This document shows positions 9,362 to 34,265 of a stretch of 64,000 nt of DNA, piece by piece. The stretch lies in the NCBI GenBank assembly GCA_051294905.1, contig CM119373.1:1676001-1740000 (forward strand). Reading direction: 5' to 3'. A program made the position numbers and the translations under genes. The stretch's first letter is position 1. Every line of letters starts with the position of its first letter. Under the pieces are notes generated by a model that saw only the letters and a list, made by a program, of their open reading frames with translations, did not search any database and was not told the origin of the DNA. The DNA is from Botryllus schlosseri (lineage: Eukaryota).

Positions 9362-9596
9362 GTAGAATTTCATCTTTTCGCTCTGGGTATTCCGTTTTAC
9401 TTGTATGAAGTATGGTCATGATCCGTTCAAGTAAATATGCTCGTAGTATTAGACGCCCTGGATGCTGGATGTATCGATAGCCTTTGTAGGCGTAATTCCG
9501 CGATTGACGTCGATCCTGTCGTCCCGGTCAGGCGATATAAGCTTCACCGAGACTATTAAAAAGCCCATACATTTATCACTGTCATTCGCCTTTCAG

Positions 9597-9659
9597 GTGC
9601 AGATCAGCTGTCATCGGGCTCAGAAGCCAGTGCCGGGCGTGCAACAACGCATGTGGCAG
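9597..9659 (+). CDS. NLR N-terminal exon, module copy 2b (GADQLSSGSEASAGRATTHVA)
   Basis: cgcctttcag|...|gtaatg, 63 nt, phase 1-1. Confidence 0.75.
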
Positions 9660-9819
9660 GTAATGAATTCCCATATTGCCCCCATTGGCAAGGTTATTAG
9701 ACGTGTGGCTAGATAAACTCGTAAATGAGGCAAGTCTACGATTCGTGTTGACCTAAGCAGCATCTTAGTGGACAAATTTTTGTTTCCACATCCACTTGAA
9801 GTTGCTTTGACATGTTACT

Positions 9820-10266
9820 TAGGCTTACCATACGTCCTCTTTTAAGAGTATTTGTCCTCTTTTTTGACTTTTTGAAAAGTGTCCTCGGAGGACGCCCTTT
9901 TGTCCTCTTTTTTGAGAATTTGTCCTCTTTTTTGAAAATATAGGTCAGATATAGAGCAAATTGCGAGTGAAATGTCGCAAATTAGCACAGAAGTGACGCT
10001 GCGGCGGATATTTCGGAGTGAAAAACGGTGAATTTAGCTCTGATCGAAAAGATGACCTTTTTTTTTTTTTTTTTTTTATTCATTCACCTGGCAATGTGGA
10101 GAAAAAAACGGTATTTTGAGCTCTGAGCGTAAGTGATGACCTTTTTTTTTTTTTTTAGTCAACCGATCACAATGTGGGAAAAATTCACCGGTTTTTGAGA
10201 ATTCTACTCCGGTTTTGCATCTTTCAAAGTGTCCTCTTTTTACATTTTCAAAATATGGTAAGCCTA
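9820..10266. mobile_element. hAT MITE (TGTCCTCTTTT repeats)
   Basis: TIR TAGGCTTACCATA / TATGGTAAGCCTA; perfect TSD ATGTTACT; related fragment near 53032-53290. Confidence 0.9.
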
Positions 10267-10386
10267 ATGTTACTGAAGATATTCCGCATGGGATTGATGC
10301 GAGGAGTTGAACTGGTTAAAGCTATTACAATACTTATTTGGCTACCATATATAACTCTTTATCATATTCGTTCATCATCTTTACAG

Positions 10387-10437
10387 AAGAAAGGAAAACA
10401 TCCCGTTCAGTCATGGAGAGAAAACGATTGTTTGAAG
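10387..10437 (+). CDS. NLR N-terminal exon, module copy 2c (EERKTSRSVMERKRLFE)
   Basis: catctttacag|...|gtgaaa, 51 nt, phase 1-1. Confidence 0.72.
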
Positions 10438-12739
10438 GTGAAAAACATTACATCCATTCGAACAGATGAATCATGTAGTTATGCATCCGACGCGCTATGA
10501 AACTTAAAATATATACGGACGTGAAAGGCAAAACAAGTCGACAATAATTCGTTGTCCTTCGAAAATAAATCACATATGGAAAATACCAAGCCCGTTTCAT
10601 TCAACATTCAAATAGTACTGTCTGGAAGCGCATATCGAACACAGGCGTGAACGTTGCGTCCACGCCGTCTTCACAGTGAACACGGTTCATGCAAAGATGC
10701 ACTCGGTGACTTCATGAAAGCGTATTTTATGCTTTCTAATATTTATATACTATACAACCATCCCAAACAATCGTTAAAAGAAATCAATTATACATACGGA
10801 TGATTTACAGAAATGAGTCGCCCCTATGGGGAATAGGAACGCGTGCGTCCAATCATGGTAACCCAGTTTATCATTACATGCACGTCCAATGTAACTAGCA
10901 AAAATTCATTCATTAAACATAAAATATTTTCATGCTTTACACGTGTAAGAAAAAAAATGCGCGGCCGGCCGATGAAAATCAATAGACTAGTCTTTCGTCC
11001 TAAAATTGTGTTATCCCTCCGTTCGATACGGAAACATTGTGTTTTGGTAGTGATGAAATTGTCCGTCTCAGAAAATACGATGAAACCGCTATGCAGACTC
11101 GATACCAGCGTTTGGTGGGCAGACGGCCGGTAGGAAGTTTCAACATGCGATTCTGCAAATTGAAAAAAGATCTGAGACGATAATACCCTGACCATAAATA
11201 ACCGGCACATGGGAGCCTGTTCCTTAGATATTGACATATTCAGGAGCTGAAACGTCAGATACCGAATAGTCCTGTCCCTGTCACCTGTACTGGGCGCTAC
11301 AAGTGCGAGCCGTGGACCAAAATGATGCGCCCTTTAAACATACTGATCTTGAATCCAGGTCGTATAACGAAATGAAACCTTCTTTTAATTTGGTCTGATA
11401 AATGTGGCGATTCGATGTTTTTGATTACCGACAATGTTTACCGTAGGTAACGACATAGTAACCTTCCACGATATAATTATTAAAAACGACGTCGACCGAA
11501 GCAAGCCCAGCTCAAAAACTGTATGAATATAGTCTTAGGCGTCCAGCAGAAGCGTGGCTCATGTTCTGTAATCAGTAATTGTGTTAACTAAACTTTCGAA
11601 AACACCACCTCCATCAACGCTAATAGTAAATTTGGTCACTTGGGCTGAGAAGGGATCATAATAGTATTAATATCCTCAAGCACCATATAATTGATATTAT
11701 TCAGTCATATCGTGCGATTGACAATCTATATTCATTGTACACTGACTGCTTATAGCCAGGGGTACTGCGCTCAAAATAGGATTTGTTCTCAAGTCTTTTT
11801 CTTCAGAACCATGAACCATATTCGGAAAGCTGCTTAAATATTTTAAGACATGCGCCATCACTCACCACACTCTAATTGCAGCTATATACGTATGTCTGTA
11901 TCATGGACATCACTTGTCATAGCTTCACCCGAAGAGAGATGAGATGCATTGCTGAGTAAGAGTTCTTTGACTGGACGCGACATTATCATATTTGTTTAAA
12001 AAAAAAGCTGTTTCCTAATTTTGTTGCCTCATCGTACGGTCACAGCCAAAGTTTGCTTCGGATGCGATTGAACTTATTATAATTCCATTCCCCTCCGCTT
12101 ATCTTTGTAAGAGTTGATTCCGGCACCAGTTCATATCAAATTGATGGCGCAGACTTTCAAGACGCGACCACGTATTTCAACAGTTCGAGACAGGCTTCTG
12201 GCATGTAACTGCAGAGAAATTATATTCGTTAGGTGAATTCACTTTGAAACGAATGAAGACGTCTTTATCAATTATCAATTAGTATGATTTTCATTTACGG
12301 AAAAGTGCAGTTTCAACAGCTTATATTAGGTAAATTCGTTCAATGAATGGAATTGATCGAAAACTGTATCTCGTGTATTCATTTGATTCGTAATAAATTG
12401 CACAAATTTGCATCGTGCAATGGCGCAAATGCATCGATTTATTTATATCAAGTGGTAGATATTCAAACATGAAGTTGATTGATATTTATCAGCCCATTGT
12501 AGTATACATCAGCACTATCACAAAATAGCATCGATGCCACAACATACATTTCTGACGATAGACGCGAATTATTCACATAGCCCCCAACCACCATCGTATG
12601 CGTTTCGGGAAAATTATAACTAATAATAAGTAATAAATTTGTCACGTGATCACTAATCACTGCGATTTAATAATTTGTGGGCGGATCAGATTTATTTTTG
12701 TGGCCAACTGTTAATTCACTGCTATATTTGTTGTTTCAG

Positions 12740-12814: not shown

Positions 12815-13750
12815 GTAAGGAACAATCATGTTTGCTTTGAAAACGGAAGACGTTGTTCGTCACCGCGTCGTACATATTGGCGTCGGCGGTGGCTCGTCCC
12901 CTAGGGCAACTGAGTCTGCCCATGTGCTGTAGCAATATTAGCTACAATATAGTATAGACCTATATTTACATTTGCATCTGCCCAAGACATAATACACAAT
13001 ACGATACAAACGACAAAATACGATGGAACAGTCAGATAAGAGTAATGGGAAACGAGAAAATACGGCGTAATGCCCGGTGACACGGAGTTCGAAATTGATT
13101 TTTGGGCGCCTTTCCTTGACGCCGTAAGAAGAGTAACACAGGTGGAGTGTTCCAGATGAAGCTATATACGCTTCGGATACTGGCAATAATAATATTGTAC
13201 AGCGCAGATTACGGAAGACGTGATTTAACTCCACAGACTCCCCTATATTAAACAACATAGAGCTGAGCGGCCGGAAGTTTAGAGCTGAACCAATATATGA
13301 ATATGAAAAATGAGCGAGGGGAGCCAAGCGTTATATGCCGAATGCTAATTACAGTCCATTCGTTTATTCAAATATATCCTATACTATGAGAATGCGGGTA
13401 GTAAAACCTATGATATCAATCTTGCATTATCTGGTATTGTTACATTTCAAAACATCAATGTACCCGCTTTAACATGTGGATTCGGCACGCTTCAAGGCAT
13501 CCATTTGGATTCTGCATTGTGCGACACACCTAAACACTGAATTGTGAACCCGCTACTAGTGTTGTGACTGTGTCGTAAGCCGCACACAGCGCCATTCACG
13601 TCTCTAGTCTTTATGATGAAATGACGAAAATAATTGGAATAGGGTATATATTTGACTTGAAGATTGAAGTTTTGTATCTCGCATGGAATTTTGTCACACT
13701 TCGGTGCCACAGTCCTGAACGGTGTCTGACTGGATCAATTCTTATAACAG

Positions 13751-13804
13751 GGCAATCTCAGCGAGGTCAGGACACCAAGAATTCGCCAGAACCTGATGGT
13801 GCAA
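13751..13804 (+). CDS. NLR N-terminal exon (GQSQRGQDTKNSPEPDGA)
   Basis: cttataacag|...|gtgagt, 54 nt, phase 1-1, open. Confidence 0.75.
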
Positions 13805-14176: not shown

Positions 14177-15469
14177 CAGACTTGGACAACTAGATAATTT
14201 TAGTTGTCTAATTTCAATAAATTAGAGCGAAATGCAAGTAATCGAATTCTAATCTAGTTTGCGAAATGTTTCTATGCTCTAATTCCAATTCTAATTCTAA
14301 TCTAATTTTCGATTTGTTGTGTTCTAATTCCAATTCTAATCTAATTTGCGAAATATTCCTATGCTCTAATTTCAATTCTAATCTAATTTATTGTTTTACT
14401 AAAAATGCCGTCTTTTCGCGGCATTTTGCAGCGAGTTAACAAGAACATCCCTCTTGCAAAGGGAATCTAGTGACAAGCCGCCATTGCATCACTTACACCG
14501 TATAGGATCATGATAGTAGGTATTGTGCAACGAATGATAGTCATGCTGGCAATATAGTCTGCAAACATCATTCCAGTTTCGATCACAAACAGAACAACAG
14601 CGAAAAAAAGTGCAATCACAGGTTTGTTCACTTTCATGCCCTCAACTACACCAACAAAGAAGATGATGGTTACTTCATATCTAACCAAAGAAAATATATT
14701 AGAGGATGAGGTGGAAAGATATTTCGCAGCAGAGAGTGTGATCTTGGACTGTGATGTTTTGAGTTACTGGAAAAGAGAAAATATTTTTCCTCATCTGCAG
14801 GCTGCTACTGTTCGAGAACTCGTAGGCATCACCCTGGGTCGATTTCTAAACGTCTAGGTCTTGGAAGTGTTCAAGCCATCGCACGTCATGGAAATATGCT
14901 TGTTCCTATCAGCTGACTCCACATCTATGGAATGCTTTTGCCATCGCCGGAGCCATTTCAGCTAGTGATGAATAGTGATATTAGGCACAGGCAAATAGAT
15001 TTTTTGAAAAAACAACACTAATAATTTGAAACTGAAATCAATTTCATCAATTCAAAATCCGTTATTCCGCGTTCTTCCCAAATCACGAATCAGATCGCCG
15101 ACCGCAAAATATGACCTCGTGGGCCTCATGTTGATGACCCCCTGGTATACAGAACAAAACGGACCAAGCTTGGTGTACAGACGTTCGCCATAACCATTGT
15201 CATGGTTGTGGGAATGCACTTGATATGAACTGAACTGTTGGCTGTATTTATTTCTCATTCATAATTTCATTCAATTTCCACGTTTTTGCGATTTCAGTGA
15301 TTCTAATCCTATATATCTGTGTAGCTCTAATTCTAATTATAATCTAATTTTGAAAACAACGTGTAGCTGTAATTTTAATTCTAATCTAATTTGGGAAAAG
15401 TTGTGTAGCTCTAATTCTAATTCTAATCTAATTTGGAAAATCTGTAATTTTTCTAGTTGTCCAAGTCTG
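14177..15469 (+). mobile_element. Internally deleted hAT (Ac-like) element with C-terminal dimerisation-domain remnant
   Basis: TIR CAGACTTGGACAACTAGA; perfect TSD CTCATACG; TTCTAA/TCTAAT subterminal arrays; ORF 14624..14857 EDEVERYF...DVLSYWK...FPHL; partial copy near 63130-63280. Confidence 0.9.
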
Positions 15470-15667
15470 CTCATACGTAGCCTGCGTGAAAATTGTGATA
15501 AGTGTGAAACACTTCTTCAACTAAATCAGCTAGACGATTAGGTTTATATAACAGCGAATAAAATTATTATAAGGAAATATACCATACCGCATATCACAAA
15601 TGGAATTTACGATCAATATAAATATATATCGATAATCATAAGTTACTGGGTTTTGTATTACCAACAG

Positions 15668-15760
15668 ATTATGCAACATTAGCCGAAGGCGATCAGGTCA
15701 ATCAAAGTTTTGAAAACAGCACAGTGAACGTTGTTGCAGGAGACCAATACATCACCAATG
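15668..15760 (+). CDS. NLR exon with candidate amyloid-signalling motif (NYATLAEGDQVNQSFENSTVNVVAGDQYITN)
   Basis: ttaccaacag|...|gtaagc, 93 nt, phase 1-1, open; not in the ORF track because it is short. Confidence 0.8.
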
Positions 15761-16409
15761 GTAAGCTACGTGAAACTTTCCAGCCTGCACGATATTGACT
15801 TTTCTGCACCGCACTTCGAGTTAACTCGGGGTAAATGAAATATATCGGGATCGACGTCACAGTTTAGCTTTTTATTCATTGATATATTTTGAGAATATAG
15901 ATATCGGATATGCTTTCTTTATCATAAAAACGTCTGCAGGAACGCATAAACCTGCATGTCCCTAGATTTATCAGAACACGTGCATCACGCTCGATGAAAA
16001 GTTAACCTTAATTCATCCACTCAAGCTTGATGCTGACCGATCGAAGACCATTAATTCTGCAATCGGCAAACATCTGTTGAATAATCTGATTTGTGCGAAT
16101 AATTACCGAGACGACAAATTTCGGGTTATTGGGCGGGGCCGTTCACACTTCCACTTGTGTGCCTTGGAGTCGACTTTTATCAAAATACACCAACCGAAAC
16201 TCTATCAACAGAAGGAGTTCGTGTACCACCTAGGAATAGTGCAATGAACGCTCTCTCATTCGATGTTTCATGCTGGCGACGTCATATTTTGTGATACGAT
16301 TGTTGATATACAATGTTCTCTCTTATTCTCTACTAGGTGCTGACGATTACCCCTGACGAGTGTCAGCCGCAAATATAGTCGCGTTAATTTCAATATGAAT
16401 ATACTATTG

Positions 16410-18619: not shown

Positions 18620-18691
18620 AAATCCATGTGACGCCACCATCTGATATCCCAGAAGATAATTTGGAGCAAGAGCGATTGCGATTAGAAGCGG
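18620..18691 (+). CDS. NLR linker exon (EIHVTPPSDIPEDNLEQERLRLEA)
   Basis: cttgtaacag|...|gtaggt, 72 nt, phase 1-1; lies within ORF 18514..18801. Confidence 0.8.
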
Positions 18692-19940: not shown

Positions 19941-20728
19941 GTATATGGTCATTTCATATGCCATGTATTATAAGACTTCTGTATCGAAGAAACAATGATT
20001 TAGATTTTTAATCTAAGTGTGGCAGAACGTCAAAGAATAGCCACTCCTAGTATATACTCAATTAGGACACATTTTTATAATGCCACTCTCAAGAAGGACA
20101 TCTTATGGCAGCCCAAAAGTAATAATTTAATTAGTCACTTGCGGAATACCTGCGACCCGTAGACAAGAATTGTTTTTTTTCCTACATAAATGTGTCAAGT
20201 TTGGAAGGCGTGCTGCTTATGGTCAGGTACGATTGAGCCAAGCCCAAGTCAGGAAATAGAAGGTATTACACAGCAAAATCGCTAAAATATGTTTATATGT
20301 TGCGTGTTACCATTTTACATGATTGATTTTGGCAAATTATTCAACTGATAGTTACCTCCAGCTCTTATTTATGGATATGTGTATATCCTTAATTTCAGAT
20401 CCATCCACTTAAACTATGCATTGGGATTGTAAACCTTCAGATTGCTCTTTAAATATAAGTATCACATTGTACTGAAGATGTAATATATAATTAATTCAGT
20501 ATCATATTTGTTGTATGTTGTATATAATTTTATTATACCACTTACCGGTTAATGAAATCACAATTTCAAAATTTTCAACGATGAACACCGTGTAATAAAG
20601 GTTGCGAACTCCTGATGTAGAGCAAGCAGACAAAACTATATACTAGAAATATATAATTCCCACGTTGCTGGCCGCCGTGTTCCGTTTGTTCATGACCGTG
20701 TAAAGTTGAGAACTAATATTGTTTACAG

Positions 20729-21861
20729 TGAAGGGATTTTTAGCGAAGACGAAACATCATTTACTAAAGGAGATAGGTGGACATCTTACCAAAAAAGCCC
20801 GACCTACCATGATGGTTGTCGACACAAAGGGTACAAGTGCAGCAGATCATCATGCTGGAGGAAAGTCATTATTCGGCCGTGATCTGGAAGAAATCAGTCT
20901 CGATCAACTTCACGATTCAGAACATCAGATAACTACCAAGCATGTCCTGATCCTCGGAGAAGCCGGGGCCGGGAAATCCACTCTTTCCAAAATGTATAGC
21001 CTGGCTGTCGCCGAGGGCAACGTCAAGACTCTTGACAGCGTCCAACTCGTTCATTTCGTATCTGCCAATAAGCTACAACCTCGTAGCCCGACTACTGCTT
21101 TTCGTCTGTTATTCACCGAGCAAATGGCTCACGACCCTAAGACTGAACTGAGCCCTCGTGAACAAAAATATGGCGAACAATGGTTGGAAAAAAATTCTTC
21201 CATGATGTTAATAACAATTGACGGCCTCGATCAATGTTTGGAAGAATTCGGCAGTGATAAATACCCTAGAGTGATAGCGACCACCCCCGCAAAAGCCAAC
21301 GACATCATCGCAAACATCATGTCCGGCAGTATATGGCGCGATGCTCGCGTTCTTACAACATCGCGCTGGAACACCTATTGGAGCATTACAGTTGATCAGG
21401 AACCTGGCAAAGTAGTAGGTCTCAGAGGACTAGACGACAAAAACTTGAAAGACATCGCGTTCACCCAATCAATTGACGGTGATCTAATGCTGTCCCAACT
21501 CGAAAATTCTTCACCTAAATTGCTGTCTTTGTGTCGAAATCCCATGTTTCTCAACTATACGACGAAATTGTTTCAAAACAACCGCAATAGCCTACCAGAT
21601 AGCCTTGCTGGTCTCATGGCAGCATTCTTCCGCGAATTTCTTAGCTCTCAATCCGAAAAATACTACGGTCAAATTACAAAGCTAGGTTATGACGCAATGC
21701 TGGAAAGTAAATTCGTTTTCCCACCCAGCTATTTGAGCATCCACGGAATCGATTCAAAGCTTCTCGATGACTTCCTGTCTACCGGAGCCATACTCGAGGA
21801 GGGTCATAAGACCGTTAAGTCATTCAACAAATCATCCGAGTTCTCTCATCAAACGATGCAG
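20729..21861 (+). CDS. NACHT NTPase exon (NBD, HD1, start of winged helix)
   Basis: ORF 20719..21885: Walker A GEAGAGKST, Walker B LITIDGLDQ, sensor-1 VLTTSR, GLRGL, LCRNPMFL, FSHQTMQ; gtttacag acceptor (phase 1), gtgagt donor (phase 0). Confidence 0.95.
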
Positions 21862-22000
21862 GTGAGTGTTGATGTAGCATTTTAAAGCTAAATGAAATTA
21901 TCTCTTTGAAATTACTTTTCGTGTGGGACTCAGTAGTCTTGCAAAAAAAGTCATGATTGCTCATAATGTATACCCTTGCTGTCGTCACATTCCCCAAGAG

Positions 22001-23742: not shown

Positions 23743-24161
23743 TTCCAGAGTTATGCATAAACGATGGTAATCAATATCTATTTTCGTTAAATTTCATTCC
23801 AGATCATCCCACTTTTCCATTCACTTTTTATATTAGGAAAATTTGCCGGCACGTCAGTGATGGTGCAAACAAACTTCGATCCACGGATCAAATGTCACAT
23901 GGAAACTAATTTGACACTAGTTTTATCCGATCCACGAAACAACATCATCGCGAGCCAGAAATGTTGGATCCGGCTTTCCTCTCAGCCCGGAAACGTTCGA
24001 ATACATTTGAAATGAAGCTTCATAAAATGCGTGTTGTAGTGTACATAAAGTGTATCATGCGCAGCATGTGCAGTGCATGAGTGTCAAGTAGCCTACCAAA
24101 TATAAGGCGGTTATTCTACCATCTATCCTTGTATCTGCAAGATATAAATCTGAATGTTCAG

Positions 24162-24324
24162 GAGTTTTGCTGCGCGTTACACGTCCCGAATTTGCCGATA
24201 GAGGAAATAAAGGCGTTCGTTACAAACGAACTGAACGACAGTAGAATGGAACTGACAAGACAACTTCTGTACGGGTTAATTTTGGATGACAAAGTTACCG
24301 AACCGATGACCAACTACCTTGCAA
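24162..24324 (+). CDS. NLR winged-helix/HD2 exon (EFCCALHV...RQLLYGLI...NYLA)
   Basis: gttcag|GAG TTT completes the FxHxxxQEFxxA motif; gtaagt donor; phase 0-1; 163 nt. Confidence 0.92.
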
Positions 24325-25147
24325 GTAAGTTCATTCTGGAACCTTCTATTATAACTAAAAGCATGTCTTGGCACTTGTTCATAATCATGCACATTCTTCA
24401 AAAATCTCGCGCACAAGTCTCCGGGGTAGAGGCAAAGTACCAAAGCATCTCCTGAAAAATGAAGTTGCTTGCGTACCCCAGTTTGAGAACCCCTAAACTG
24501 CGGCACACATAACACTATATCGACTTCTGGTAAAATAGAAAAAATATCGATTACGGGAAATGATGGATTTTGATGTTAATATTTTCTTTATTCACAGTAA
24601 AACTGGTAAAGACACACATAATCCGGGAAGCAACCTGCCCCCAAAGGAAAATGGCGAGATTGGAGTAAATTGTTAAAATTTCAGTAATACACTCAAATTA
24701 TTATTCCTGTGCAATACATGGAGAAGTCAGATTACAGAATTGCAGCAGATGAAGAATTGACACGGGTTACAGGGCAGAGGTAGAGATGATTGAAAATGAA
24801 GAATCGAAATTGTAGAAATAATGCTGTGATTCACAAGTGCAATTTTAGTCCAGTGGGGCATTCAAGGCCTTCCGAATAATGTGCACAGTAGGGCTCTTCA
24901 AAAATGACTTTTTTTCTCAAATCGTACTGGCTACTTGATGAAAATGTTAGGTTTCCTAATTTAAGCCTACACACAAAATTTAGTTCAATTCCAGCCAGTA
25001 ACCGCTTTGCTACAGGAGAATAAAGTTTCTATTTATTATATAATAATAAATAATAAAAAATTTGAAAATTTTCTGTTCACCCCACGAAAGTGTTAGGCTG
25101 TCTCTAGAAACGATGGTGGTGCTGGTGCAACCAAGGAGATCCGGTGC

Positions 25148-26001
25148 TTAGGTGGCTCGGAACACACCTAATCGACAACAGAAGGCCTCACACATGGCAA
25201 CCGAGGCGGCACTGGGAGGATATGAATACAATCATGAAGGAAATGGAATACAAGAGGGAGTACATCCCTCTGAAAGGAAACACAAAACTGTATAATGCGG
25301 CAATCGCACTGAAGGGAGCGATAGAGATAAGAGAGATGCAGGGCCCCAAGTGGGAGAACATTCAGCACAGAATACTAACCCCACAACAGAATGACATGAA
25401 CTGGTCGGTAGCCTTCGAGTTACTGAACACAAATGAGAGCCTGTACGCGAGGGCGATCACGGATACAAGAGAGTGCGAGCTATGCCAAAAGTACAGAGAA
25501 ACAACAGTACACCTGCGCACGAAGTGCGAAGAGGCCATAATACCGCTAGAACGAATCACCGAGGCATGGATCAAGGCAACAGGGCAGATCATCGAAACAA
25601 GGAACTTGAGTACCATCATACAGATGAACCCAGGGGGAGCGCTCGATGAAGACCAAGAGGCAGCCCTTGCGATAGCGATTACATCCTACAAGCAGGCTGT
25701 AAGGATGGCACGAACTAAAACAAAATTTGATGGGAAAAAAACAGGACATAAATGGATAAGCAACTCGATAAAACAAAGATTGAGACTGAGGAGCATACCT
25801 CAGAGGGAGGAAAATCTCGAGAGAATATTGGAAACTATTCGAAATGAGATCTCCTGAAAAAAAACGGGTGGCAAGACTGAAAAGAGTACGCAGAGATCAG
25901 AAAAAAAAAACAGAAACAGGAAGGAAAGAAACCCTAGCCAACGCTATGTGTTCCTAACGGGAACAGGCGTACCGCGAGAAAGGGCCAATACACCAAATGC
26001 T
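25148..26001 (+). mobile_element. 5'-truncated non-LTR retrotransposon (Tx1/L1-like ORF2 C-terminus with CCHC zf-RVT)
   Basis: ORF 25144..25857 CELCQKYRETTVHLRTKC; 15-bp direct repeat AAGGAGATCCGGTGC at 25133-25147 and 26002-26016. Confidence 0.8.
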
Positions 26002-28865: not shown

Positions 28866-29789
28866 GTGAATCGTGTTGAATCTTTGCTCCGTACGCCGTT
28901 TAGGCAGCTGCCTTTAGAGCAAAAATTAGAGCTAAAGCGACTAGGTCCGTATCAGCCTAGAAATTGCCCATTGATCCAATCGTACGCCGGAGGAAAACGC
29001 ACGCCTTTTCTTCAGCGCATTTCGATAAAAATGAATGGCTTACTTATAGCGAGGATAAAAACGCCTTGTTTTGCTTTTACTGTCTTTTATTCGACAGTGC
29101 CGGTACCGGAAGCAGTGGCTCTTGTTGGAACAAAATTGGTTATCGCGATCTGAATCATTTGTCAGGGCGTGTGAAAGCGCACCAAAAATCCCAAGTGCAC
29201 ATGGCTAGTGCAGTTAAATATAAATTGTTTGGCGGAGTAAATGTAATGTCGCAGCTCAATGAAAGTTATCGCGTATCAGTCTGCAAGCACAATGAGCTTG
29301 TAAATAAGAATAGGCATGTTCTCTCTCGGGTGATTGATGCCATTAAATTTATTGGAGTTCATGAATTGCCCCTTCGGGGCCACGATGAGAAGGAATGCTC
29401 TCTCAATAGGGGGGTGTTTTTGGATCTAATTAAATACACGGCTTCCATGGATAGCATTTTGCGCGAACATCTCGACACCGCGACAGTAGCTAAGTGTACC
29501 TCAAAGACTATTCAAAATGATGTGCTTGATTCTATATATCACATCTATCTACAGCATTTGTTTACCGAGATTGTTGACGCTGAATTTCTATCTATTCAGT
29601 CTGACGAAACAACTGACATTACGTGTTTGTCACAACTAGTCGTGATTTTTCGGTTCACGAAATTTGGTATGCCAGTCGAACGATTCCACAGCTTTGTGGC
29701 TGTTGACGATCGCACTGCTGTAGCAATTTCTTTCGTATTAAAAAAACATTACAGCCCTATTCAGTTGAGTCGAAACTTATTGCGCAAAC
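28866..29789 (+). pseudogene. hAT transposase pseudogene (ZMYM1-like)
   Basis: WLTYSEDKNALFCFYCLLF zinc finger, LPLRGHDE...NRGVFLDL, SKTIQND, SIQSDETTD; frameshifts near 29000 and 29745; cut at KLIAQT by the P-like element. Confidence 0.9.
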
Positions 29790-32693
29790 CAGGGATATCT
29801 AGACTACGGGATTGATAACTAGTCACGTGACCGCGTACTCTGTTGACGGAATGAGGGCATTCTTGACAAACAGGAGTTGAGGTGGAGTGTCGTTGGGCTC
29901 GTAGTTCAGTTTGCGTTCGTTGTTATTCGTTAATTCGGGGCTACATACTGATCGCCAGGCATCTGCGAGATAAGTTAAGGACATTGTACGTACATCGTAG
30001 CTAGCTGGCAACCTTCGCCTGTCTCATAAACCTTGTGCGAAGCGTCAATGACGGTCGCGTTTTGGCAGTACCGGTACTAATTCTAATTCTAATTTGGGTT
30101 TTGCGTTCATCGTTAACTTCGTCGTTACTGGTGATATAAGAGATGGACTGACCGTAGATCTTACTGAAGTGAGCTAAGATAAGTTTCCATAGTGTCAATG
30201 TTCGAGCGTTACCGTGGCTACTCAGTCGTTCAGTTTTTCACGCGCGAGCAGTACCGGTAACTACTCGAGTCGTTCAGTTTTTTCCATGCTGGAGAGGTAC
30301 CGATAATTGCGGGTGGCTACTCATGTCATTACGTTTTACCATGTTGTACAGTACTGGTAGTGACTGACGGGTTTGTATACTCGTTTGTTTTTTGTCTTGA
30401 CATATAGCAACTGATGCTATACTGAATATAGAGAGACGGGCCTACATAGGCGTTCGGGGCTTTAGGCCTTTAGGCTTAGAGGCTCTTAAACCTACACGCC
30501 TATATCATGTAATTTCCATTTTATTACCTTAAATTGATAGAAGTAACCTTCTTAGGCTTGAATATATCTAACGCTGACACTACGAATGACGAATGGGATA
30601 TACATGGTGTGTCAAATCGCCGTACCGGATAAAAACCCAGAAAAGGTGCTACATTAGAGGAAAACTCAGTTTTACATGGACGCCTGTTTGTTTTGCCACA
30701 AGAGCAAAATTCATGCCAGAAATGGATTAGAGCGATTCCACGCAAAGATTGGATAGTCACTATATACACCAGGGTGTGTGCAAAGCATTTCTCTCTTGAT
30801 GACTTCATGGAAGATACCCGTGATTGTGATACAAGCAGCACCCGCCGAAACAAACATGAATTTCAGAAATTATCAAGATCGAGTTTGAAACTGGGTGTTA
30901 TTCCTCATATTTTCACGAAACTGTCGGAGTATTTGAGTGCATCCAACCCCAAATGTCGGAGTAACAAGCAAATATTTATGCATGAAAAATTGGAAAATTA
31001 GATTCTCTGAAGGAAAAAATTAAGAGTGAGACACTGCCATCCGGATATAGTTCTGTGTGCAATGTGCACTAATGATTTGCTGCAATTTCACTGGATGGAG
31101 ACATCAGAGAATGAATGGAATGAATCCTCCCACTGCTGGTCATGAGGATATTTAGGAGTGTCGCGCGATGCCAAGTTCGTCCATATACGAAAATTGTATG
31201 AACTTCAAGAAGGCCTTCCCGTCAAAGCTGCTCAGAGATTGACAAAAGTATCTTTGAATCCTAGCGGTATTGCCCGAACGTCGCCTATACATTCTCCTGG
31301 TGTTTTCAGTGAGAGCACTGTGATTGGGCTTAAGGCATAGGCAGTCCCTTTATGAAGGAGCCTCTTGCAAAGTCTCTGTATTTTTACAAACTGTGCGTTA
31401 TCTGGAATTCATCACGTTCCTGAAAAGTCCTAATTAAGCTTCCAGGAAGAGAAATCCATTCTACATGCCTTTACAAGAAATGGAAGGATGTGTCCAGTGT
31501 CCATCCTAGCTGAACAAAGCCATAACTATATTCAGGGAGTGGCAAAGATCGGGCAGAGTTGGGCTCACTAACGAAACCTTTATGGCTTGCGTTCAAACCA
31601 TAACCACAGTCCTTGCACTGTCAAAATACCTTCAACAGCGACATGACGGGAGTATTTTCTCACCGGAAAGGTCTAGAAGACAGATCCCATTGAGGCTAGA
31701 TTTGGCATGGGGCGAACTTTTTCATGTCCGTGAAACAGTAACTGCTCGCAGAAAAGAAGTTCAGCTGCTTGAGCTTACTTCAGCAGCATGGTTTGAAGAG
31801 TATTTGACCACAACTGTGTTACAACCTGCAGAAGATTATAAATGGTTGGTGAGTTTTCCGTTGAATTTTATCAAAATTGAAGAGACCGGTGTTATATATT
31901 TTGTCAGTGGATACATTGGCCGATCACTTTCTGTCCGACGAAAGTACATGGATTGCAAAAAATTGCTGATAACCGGCCGTGATGTTCCGGATTTGGATTT
32001 ATGCTTCCGAGAAGAATACAAACAATAAAAAAATAGCTGATTGAGGTGGACTTGCTGAGCCTACCGAGCTATGCTTTGCAGTAACGCTTGCTGTCAAATA
32101 TTTACCATCATAAGTGATTCAATCGACATGAAGCAAAAAATTGTTTTGTTGTCAAAGCCAAAGATTTGTTTTCACGGAGGCAACTCACGAGATGGTTTAG
32201 TTGTCCAGCCTAATGCGCCCTCTTTTGAATAACTGCTGTTAATCTGGTCATGCAAACTGCAACTCCAACGTCCAGACAGCTTTCAATTGCTTTGGGAAGA
32301 ACGAACTTGAGCGATTCAACAGCAAACCATCTCTTGTGCCGCCAGCAAAGAAACTACGTAAAACTATGAAGCTTGCGTCAATGATTGACATGATCAGAAT
32401 TGATGGTATTGCATGTCCTGTAACAGTTTATCTTGTGTTTCTAATCAATAAATTGCATGCGATTCCACGAGAATATTATAATAAAGAAAAGTATTTGTGA
32501 CGTCATAGTCGCTATGACGTCATGGTCACTATGATGTCATCAACAATTTGCTATATAACTTGAAGGAGTAAAAGTGAGCAACAGTAGGTAGCGGCGGTAG
32601 GTGCAGACAGCAGACCTCATAGATAATGTGAATTTTGCCCTCATCACGTAACAGGCAAAAAAGAGTTATCAATCCCTAGTCTAGATATCTCTG
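29790..32693 (+). mobile_element. Decayed P-element-like (THAP) DNA transposon
   Basis: About 30-bp TIRs CAGGGATATCTAGACTACGGGATTGATAACT / AGTTATCAATCCCTAGTCTAGATATCTCTG; THAP motif (KWIRAIPR...VCAKHF...GVIPHIF); P-transposase motifs VFSESTV, GLTNETF, DPIEARFG, YFVSGYI; many stops and frameshifts. Confidence 0.88.
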
Positions 32694-33559: not shown

Positions 33560-34265
33560 ATAATTCAAGTTGAATTTAGTGACCAATCCTATTGTGTCGC
33601 CATGTGTATTCGCTAGCTGCAAGTGCACCACAGCAGGGCATGAGATGTGCTACAGTTTCATTTTGGTTGTGGCACATACTGCACTTGCCGTCCGTGTTTT
33701 GCTCCAGAATTCTTTTGCGGTAGTATTTTGTAGGAAGCGATTGGTCTTGTGTTGCGAAAACGAATCCTTCGCTTGCCGGTTTCAGGCCAGAGCTGGATAG
33801 CCAGGCCCATGAAAGCTCGTCTACATGGGGCTGTGAAGTTAACTTCTTGTGCTGTCCGTGGAGAGGCATCGACTCCCACATCGTCTCTCTCATTTTGAGT
33901 GCTGCTTTTGTTATTATTGTGGGTTTGGCAACAGTGTTTTCAGCAGTTGTACAGCAGTTTTTGCCTTCTCTGGCGTACTTGTCGTGTCGGTAGCTCAGAG
34001 ATTTCGTTTTGCGCTGTTTGTCTTCCTGTGCAATTAGTTTACAGTAAATGCTATCGCTGTTGTTGACGTACTGTGACAAGCCGTGAATTTCCGTTTTGAA
34101 AGTTTGTTCAATTTCTTGAAGTCCTCGACCGCCTTTTTTTCTGGGGATGTACATTGTACAGTCTCTCTCACGCAGTCTCCGGTACGCTCGCTTTGTCATA
34201 GCTTCTTTGCTGTACTGTTTCATTCTTCTTGCACTCTATCAGTCTCTTTCAGGCACTTCATCAGC
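33560..34265 (-). mobile_element. R4/Dong-like non-LTR retrotransposon fragment
   Basis: ORF 33576..34223: YIPRKKGGRGL, PLHGQ, SEGFVFATQDQ, CSMC...ETVAHL..C...Y..RHN. Confidence 0.85.

Follow-up and report, generated by a model that had tools for sequence, protein, structure and literature searches.

The window, meaning the whole stretch of 64,000 nucleotides that was analysed (C3:1676001-1740000 of a genome of 495.5 Mb in 219 contigs, which was searched as well), contains an NLR gene on the forward strand. The exon of main interest, which we call the motif exon, lies at 15668..15760 (+); it is 93 nt long, has phase 1-1 boundaries and encodes (N)YATLAEGDQVNQSFENSTVNVVAGDQYITN. The boundaries were read from the sequence as ...ccaacAG/AT TAT GCA ... 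ACC AAT G/GTAAGC, where the slash marks a splice site. The acceptor AG at 15666-15667 (…ttaccaacAG/) is canonical and polypyrimidine-poor and the donor GTAAGC at 15761-15766 is strong. The peptide contains no proline; asparagine and valine occur five times each, glutamine and threonine three times each and glycine twice. Two pseudo-repeats, LAEGDQV and VVAGDQY, stand 17 residues apart, and the exon holds one full 17-residue unit and one truncated unit. We searched the window with a profile of 30 paralogous motif copies and obtained a single match of 56.4 bits, the next best reaching 6.3 bits.

The motif exon is joined in frame to its neighbours. Its trailing G and the AA of the linker exon at 18620..18691 (+; 72 nt, phase 1-1) form a codon across AG/GT sites. 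The linker exon encodes EIHVTPPSDIPEDNLEQERLRLEA, is rich in prolines and acidic residues and is poorly conserved, and its own trailing G forms an in-frame codon with the TG of the NACHT exon, again across canonical sites. On the upstream side a splice-site scan gave a candidate spacer exon at 13713..13804 (+) with a tentative acceptor, which is Pro/charged and reads …SQRGQDTKNSPEPDGA; …PERCLTGSILITGQSQRGQDTKNSPEPDGA. It ends in phase 1, so that its last A and the AT of the motif exon make up an Asn codon, and it is conserved at two places in one paralogous locus. All four exons inspected in this gene are free of stop codons and have intact splice sites and phases. The first-pass annotation had described a symmetric 93-nt exon, Pro-free, rich in N, V, Q, T and G and with two G-D-Q pseudo-repeats, lying between Pro/charged exons and one short linker exon ahead of NACHT. 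Every point of this description holds, and the observation is confirmed at the sequence level.

The NACHT exon occupies 20729..21862 (+) and ends with the donor CAG/GTGAGT. It is open throughout and matches the Pfam NACHT profile at 1e-13, with 51.9 bits against a cut-off of 26.7. The stop-free open reading frame (ORF) of 391 aa has an intact Walker A (GEAGAGKST) and an intact Walker B-like motif (ITIDGLDQ), and its paralogues are 75-77% identical. The nearest protein matches are ascidian NLRs (Ciona, Clavelina) at 22-29% identity. The next conserved coding segment is found at 24156..24326 (+; the bounds are those of the conserved stretch), contains …FCCALHVPNLPIEEIKAFVTNELNDSRMELTRQLLYGLILDD… and is 84% identical to a paralogue; it is the one further conserved exon that we found downstream. 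Upstream of NACHT none of the 63 plus-strand ORFs of at least 45 aa (1-15.6 kb) showed a CARD, PYD, DD, DED or TIR domain, a scan that small split exons could escape. The motif exon is the sole conserved N-terminal module found in the NLR of the window.

In order to see how widely the motif occurs, we compared the 30-aa window peptide with the genome in six frames and obtained at least 150 matches with E values down to 3e-7 and identities of 50-84%. The linker-exon peptide gave only two (itself and one at E 1.4) and the peptide of the upstream exon three. The first-pass annotation had made its case depend on conservation of the motif relative to the neighbouring linker exons, and these numbers agree with it. 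NACHT matches numbered at least 124. Among the matches listed, 75 of 150 motif copies are followed by a NACHT match within the next 25 kb of the same strand, and a motif lies upstream of 72 of the 124 NACHT matches; these association counts are lower bounds. Of the motif loci for which no NACHT is listed we sampled 14: two have a NACHT ORF within 10 kb, one has a kinase, three have retroelement ORFs and eight have nothing recognisable. At some loci the motif is still 60-70% identical where the NACHT domain is only 22-28% identical to that of the window (C1:2486831 with NACHT at C1:2483911, C16:1510052 with NACHT at C16:1505944). Some genes carry tandem motif exons ahead of one NACHT, and in one paralogue the pair of spacer and motif is repeated.

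The 30 best copies align without gaps over the core A-x-L-A-E-G-D-x-V-x-Q-x-F-x-N-[SAT]-T-V-N-V-V-A-G-D-Q. In most of them an AG lies 2-6 nt upstream, and in at least two (L007, L020) there is none; the usual end is …(V/T)-I-N-G/GTAAG in phase 1. Across the 406 pairs of 29 distinct copies we counted substitutions and found pS of 0.59 and pN of 0.19, a pN/pS ratio of 0.31. Variability was 0.13 and 0.11 at first and second codon positions and 0.33 at third positions, and in the ungapped flanks the mismatch rate was 0.68-0.72, which is near random. As pS is near saturation and pN low, third positions are about three times more variable and the flanks are unrelated, we conclude that the motif exon is coding sequence which purifying selection has maintained over a long time. 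We also considered whether the exon derives from a transposon and rejected this: distant copies have unrelated flanks, while position and phase before NACHT or kinase exons are conserved. From these sequence comparisons the exon appears to be a phase 1-1 cassette spread by exon shuffling, and the motif is probably the N-terminal signalling module common to a whole family, a large NLR expansion specific to the lineage of this ascidian-like genome.

Two orphan copies on different chromosomes, L035 (C3:16440084) and L037 (C1:4469876), have only about 210 nt in common. Both read in frame beyond the motif as …NITV-x-x-Q-x-x-LN-x-G-x-x-SLSST, followed by a stop, and no conserved neighbouring exon was found at either of them.

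Outside this genome, a profile search of a library of 1.84 billion representative proteins returned no annotated protein with the motif. There were 15 matches, ten of them short ORFs without names from Logan/ENA contigs and five long multi-stretch repeat proteins. Three of these five were looked up, two having bacterial names and one no name; the long proteins, of which at least two are bacterial, were rejected as relatives of the motif, as beta-strand repeats match such a profile by chance. An ESM Atlas look-up of the long form of the motif described below gave a best score of 0.78 to unnamed clusters and no lead. Literature searches on tunicate RHIMs and on tunicate NLR expansions brought up no description of the motif.

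We then compared motif copies with themselves at all offsets against within-sequence shuffles, and 17 was the only strong offset. The periodicity reached z = 14.4 for 30 short cores and z = 6.3 for ten long-form copies, where none of 500 shuffles attained the observed value; both z values are overstated because the copies are related. The repeat unit can be written as hydrophobic-A/V-x-G-D/E-Q/N-hydrophobic-x-Q/N…. In the long form of the exon, which has about 47 codons, a third unit …N-K-V-V-x-N-I-T-x-A-E-G-E-A… follows, glycine is invariant at positions 6, 23 and 40, and seven of the eight copies examined have an in-phase donor (CAA G/GTGAGT and variants). An AF2 model of the 47-aa long form built from 27 sequences had a mean pLDDT of 60, which is low confidence, and zero secondary structure. 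This result fits a disordered monomer and gives no fold. A complex prediction for three copies of the window motif with the kinase-linked motif of L040 (see below), run without controls, gave a score of 0.02 and a mark of 0.34, which speaks neither for nor against an assembly.

Next to consider is whether the motif belongs to a known family. A Pfam scan of four motif copies at E <= 10 returned no family, with RHIM, HET-s_218-289, Ses_B and NACHT_sigma all included. Run against the whole genome, the Pfam RHIM profile (PF12721) gave three matches (E 2.6-9.4), none of which reached the cut-off or fell on a motif copy, and a profile of 28 motif copies found none of 177,635 PDB sequences at E <= 10. 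The core tetrad of the RHIM is V/I-Q-V/I-G (excerpts of PMC12119088). The family consensus T-V-N-V-V-A-G-D-Q misses it, with Asn in the place of Gln and two residues between V-N-V and Gly. As the Pfam scans, the PDB profile search and the tetrad all fail, the motif lies outside the RHIM family by all tests applied, and the remark in the first-pass annotation that it is not a canonical (I/V)Q(I/V)G RHIM was right.

If the motif has a signalling role, a matching copy might be expected on a separate class of signalling protein, as the first-pass annotation had proposed with kinases and caspases among its candidates. We found such copies ahead of Ser/Thr kinase exons. In four genes the cassette lies 1-3 kb upstream of a kinase exon in the same splice phase, donor phase 1 facing acceptor phase 1 at four of four loci inspected; for two further pairs of motif and kinase there is proximity only. 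At L040 (C3:57.9 kb) the motif exon …STLAEGEQITHRFTNSTVNVVGGDQF… scores 46 bits and ends TTC GGA G/GTGAGC. The acceptor atttcAG/GT TGG… 1.15 kb downstream, near C3:56.7 kb, opens an ORF of 284 aa that ends in a phase-1 donor and forms an entire protein kinase domain (Pkinase 2.3e-43, profile positions 16-263) with VAIK, HRDLKPSN, DFG and APE. In L051-L053 a variant of the motif, A-x-LAVGENV-x-Q-x-F-x-NS-x-INVVSGNQ, precedes the kinase exon by 1.2-2.8 kb, and their kinases are 39-41% identical to that of L040 with DMG replacing DFG. Because L051-L053 are close paralogues of one another, the link to kinases amounts to about two independent events. The window exon and 74 nt of its upstream intron align over 170 nt with the region of the L040 exon (74.7% identity, E 7e-28). 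This alignment covers the exon and its intron flank, and we therefore infer that exon shuffling copied both as one piece between genes of the NLR and kinase types.

The kinases belong to an expansion of at least 59 copies (E < 1e-28), of which about six among those listed have a detectable motif. Their best solved relatives are IRE1 kinase domains (1.6e-29) and not RIP or IRAK kinases. The nearest annotated relatives are two fish proteins, P0028 and P0029 (32-34% identity, E 2e-25 and 8e-24), with a CARD at residues 4-90 (Pfam CARD 1e-11) followed by the kinase. Among the matches listed, no motif-kinase gene stands side by side with a motif-NLR gene. Large tandem clusters of single-exon Ser/Thr kinase domains, with IRE1 as best solved match, occur at C3:16.1-17.6 Mb and 20.0-21.7 Mb, and most of their copies among the 59 or more listed are without a detectable motif exon. 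One further candidate, P0020, a 492-aa uninterrupted ORF on a Logan contig that is 45% identical to the kinase, was rejected as support for the motif as its N-terminus scored 2.9 bits (E 0.018 among 35 proteins).

The proposal that caspases might carry the motif found no such support. With coordinates compared by eye, none of the 70 caspase matches in the genome has a listed motif copy on its own strand at a distance of about 15 kb or less, and the same is true of the 111 Death and 18 TIR_2 matches. A caspase-like ORF of 257 aa recurs with identical scores on many chromosomes, each time about 16 kb from a Death-domain match (C13:24710226/24726282, C16:14429888/14446023, C4:18143713/18159766 and C1:36392876/36371542 are examples), and many Death matches form inverted pairs about 10 kb apart. 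The caspase-like and Death ORFs look like a dispersed multi-copy unit.

As the same tag fronts more than 100 NLRs and a few protein kinases, the motif probably couples the receptor to the kinase via self-association, and this self-association is possibly amyloid-like. The reading that we prefer, and rate a little short of an even chance, is that of a lineage-specific homotypic beta-stacking motif standing in for death-fold domains on both receptor and kinase. Oligomerisation of the NACHT domains would gather the motifs, and the gathered motifs would stack into a cross-beta or beta-solenoid-like assembly. Such an assembly could recruit or template the same motif on kinases and perhaps on other NLRs, and the recruited kinases would be activated through induced proximity. 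The motif would then fill the role played by death-fold domains or RHIMs in other animals. For so short a peptide beta-stacking is the most economical explanation because of the pseudo-repeats, the tandem copies, the lack of proline, the disordered flanks and the presence on receptor and kinase alike. A more specific version, which we consider rather unlikely, would make the motif a prion-like element evolved in ascidians, a beta-solenoid with 17-residue rungs that was exon-shuffled and replaced the death-fold on more than 100 NLRs and on a kinase family of the CARD-kinase type. An activated NLR would template the motif of the kinase, and the system would be an animal-specific counterpart, reached by convergence, of the RHIM necrosome and fungal NWD2/HET-S signalling.

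A serious rival is a non-amyloid interaction element that forms no cross-beta polymer: a short linear motif or small beta-hairpin that docks on an adaptor or a folded partner, or a lid that folds back on the NACHT module to inhibit or regulate it. Strong conservation and selection suit any specific binding element, the searches of Pfam, RHIM and PDB gave zero similarity to curated amyloid motif families, and the AF2 model has no strands. The conserved charged E and D (LAEGD, AGDQ) would also be unusual for a dry amyloid core. However, one would not expect to meet an autoinhibitory lid on kinases too, no candidate for a folded receptor domain was found, and 17-residue pseudo-repeats, up to three of them, together with tandem exons are typical of stacking motifs and not of docking peptides. 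On balance we regard this explanation as unlikely, its standing as a rival notwithstanding.

A separate question is whether the gene copy in the window is active, and here we turned to RNA data. Over 20529-21576, at the NACHT exon, the RNA depth was zero in four runs with the same species label, 6-13% of each being sampled. None of the predicted splices matched any of the 15 joints listed out of 23, and an index of RNA runs queried with the NACHT exon listed no run. About 98% of the placed reads matched only in part, in repeats of the dispersed or tandem kind, and none gave depth on the exons of this gene copy. Sizeable depth was confined to 9525-10572, where it rose to about 27 per strand class and nearly all reads are partial matches with fixed differences; this stretch resembles a dispersed repeat that is transcribed and not an exon of the NLR gene. 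A 42-bp tandem repeat forms two related arrays upstream of the motif exon at 14245-14389 and 15319-15440, and these arrays collect reads with odd joints.

The downstream part of the gene bears on the question too. The gap between the NACHT exon and the segment at 24156..24326 measures 2.3 kb here versus about 115 nt in a paralogue. Just beyond the known exons of the NLR there are transposon-type ORFs on the plus strand at 25108-25857, 28961-29815 and 30633-31001, with matches to zf-RVT (7e-6), DUF4371 (5e-18) and THAP (1.4e-10), which may interrupt or bound the gene; an RT-like ORF lies on the minus strand at 33576-34235. We found no C-terminal repeat family (LRR, WD, TPR) among the 68 covered of the 77 plus-strand ORFs of at least 48 aa at 24.3-48 kb, where small exons could escape. 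The copy in the window may be silent, inducible, decaying or a pseudogene. The zero RNA depth, the long intron after NACHT, the neighbouring transposon-type ORFs and the lack of repeat exons among those ORFs would all suit a silent or decaying copy, with the family motif functional elsewhere and idle here. The open exons with their intact splice sites and phases, the 391-aa NACHT frame and its Walker motifs speak against such a copy, as do the small share of each RNA run that was read and the often weak or inducible expression of NLRs. We therefore hold this explanation possible but doubtful for the window, on the sequence and the runs covered.

The weakest alternative, that the motif is a true, highly diverged chordate RHIM descendant acting exactly like a RHIM, is very improbable: the motif shares the architectural position of the RHIM in amphioxus NLR-like proteins (excerpts of PMC4262963) and, like the RHIM, is common to receptor and kinase, and V-N-V-V-A-G followed by D-Q-Y faintly recalls V/I-Q-V/I-G (excerpts of PMC12119088), but the Pfam RHIM profile recognises neither the peptide nor the motif sites of the genome, the PDB profile search at E <= 10 gave zero chains, the tetrad is missed with N replacing Q and two extra residues before G, the solved structures nearest to the kinase are those of IRE1 and not of RIP/TKL kinases, and the motif is N-terminal to the kinase.

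What a homotypic stacking motif would mean depends on its setting. Most tunicate NLRs are without CARD, PYD or DD domains. Tunicates appear to lack RHIMs according to excerpts of PMC4262963 and are reported without RIPK1-like proteins in excerpts of PMC12119088, so the niche seems vacant in this group. One short module common to an NLR expansion and to kinases amounts to a concrete, testable wiring from receptor to kinase. If amyloid or beta-solenoid stacking is true, the motif would be an animal amyloid-signalling motif of independent origin and a clear example of such a motif being exchanged between genes for receptors and effectors by exon shuffling. If stacking is false, a large family of immune receptors is still defined by this N-terminal module, which has no name and which current gene annotation misses.

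Among named proteins the closest receptors are the Ciona 'NLRC5-like' protein P0001 and the Clavelina proteins P0002 and P0003, which share a homologous NACHT domain at 22-29% identity. P0001 and P0003 have no death-fold domain at the N-terminus and P0002 has a TIR. Unlike the NLRs described here, they show the motif only below detection, the best E values being 0.35-1.2 among 35 proteins scanned. At residues ~51-64 of P0002 and P0003, A-x-x-N-Q-V-L-Q-T-M-x-N-A faintly recalls the first half of the motif, which at E 0.35-1.2 (n=35) is not significant.

In the vertebrate RHIM system (RIPK1, RIPK3, ZBP1, TRIF), sensors or adaptors and a kinase share a short motif, and assembly of the receptor recruits and activates the kinase. 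The arrangement found here is similar in that one short motif occurs on receptors and on a protein kinase. It differs in that the kinase is not of the RIP type, IRE1 being the best solved match, and in that the motif precedes the kinase. The V/I-Q-V/I-G tetrad (excerpts of PMC12119088) is absent, and an amyloid state is here only a possible one.

The amphioxus Branchiostoma floridae has a RHIM-NACHT-repeat protein in which a short non-globular motif at the N-terminus of a NACHT protein likewise replaces a six-helix domain of the CARD kind, and RHIMs of amphioxus and other invertebrates are sometimes in tandem and have unstructured flanks (both in excerpts of PMC4262963). The first-pass annotation states that animal NLRs typically use CARD, PYD, DD or BIR domains instead; taken as a rule without exceptions this is too strong, these RHIM-NACHT proteins being in print. 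Unlike the amphioxus RHIM, the motif here fails the RHIM profile and tetrad, has internal pseudo-repeats of 17 residues and occurs in a lineage reported to appear RHIM-free in the same excerpts.

Short motifs at the N-termini of NLRs are known from fungi and bacteria (excerpts of PMC12261475). The HET-s/NWD2 HRAM, PP, sigma and BASS motifs occur both on an NLR N-terminus and on a separate effector protein of the executioner type, and the present family too has one motif on receptors and on a second class of protein. As in HET-s there are pseudo-repeats in one chain, and the composition is likewise G/N/Q-rich and Pro-free. The period is 17 and not 21, however, Pfam returned zero family matches, and the partner is a kinase and not a pore-forming or lipase/phosphorylase domain. 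In further contrast, the motif is N-terminal on both receptor and effector, and adjacency of receptor and effector genes is not seen among the matches listed.

The fish CARD-kinases P0028 and P0029, which are annotated as hypothetical or unnamed, offer the nearest parallel on the effector side. They have a homotypic innate-immune module directly N-terminal to the same type of kinase, the difference being that theirs is a folded CARD and that here the module is a motif exon of 30-35 residues. Since these kinase relatives carry a CARD at this position and the NLRs of other animals carry death-fold domains there, the motif occupies the place of a death-fold homotypic domain on both the NLRs and the kinases.
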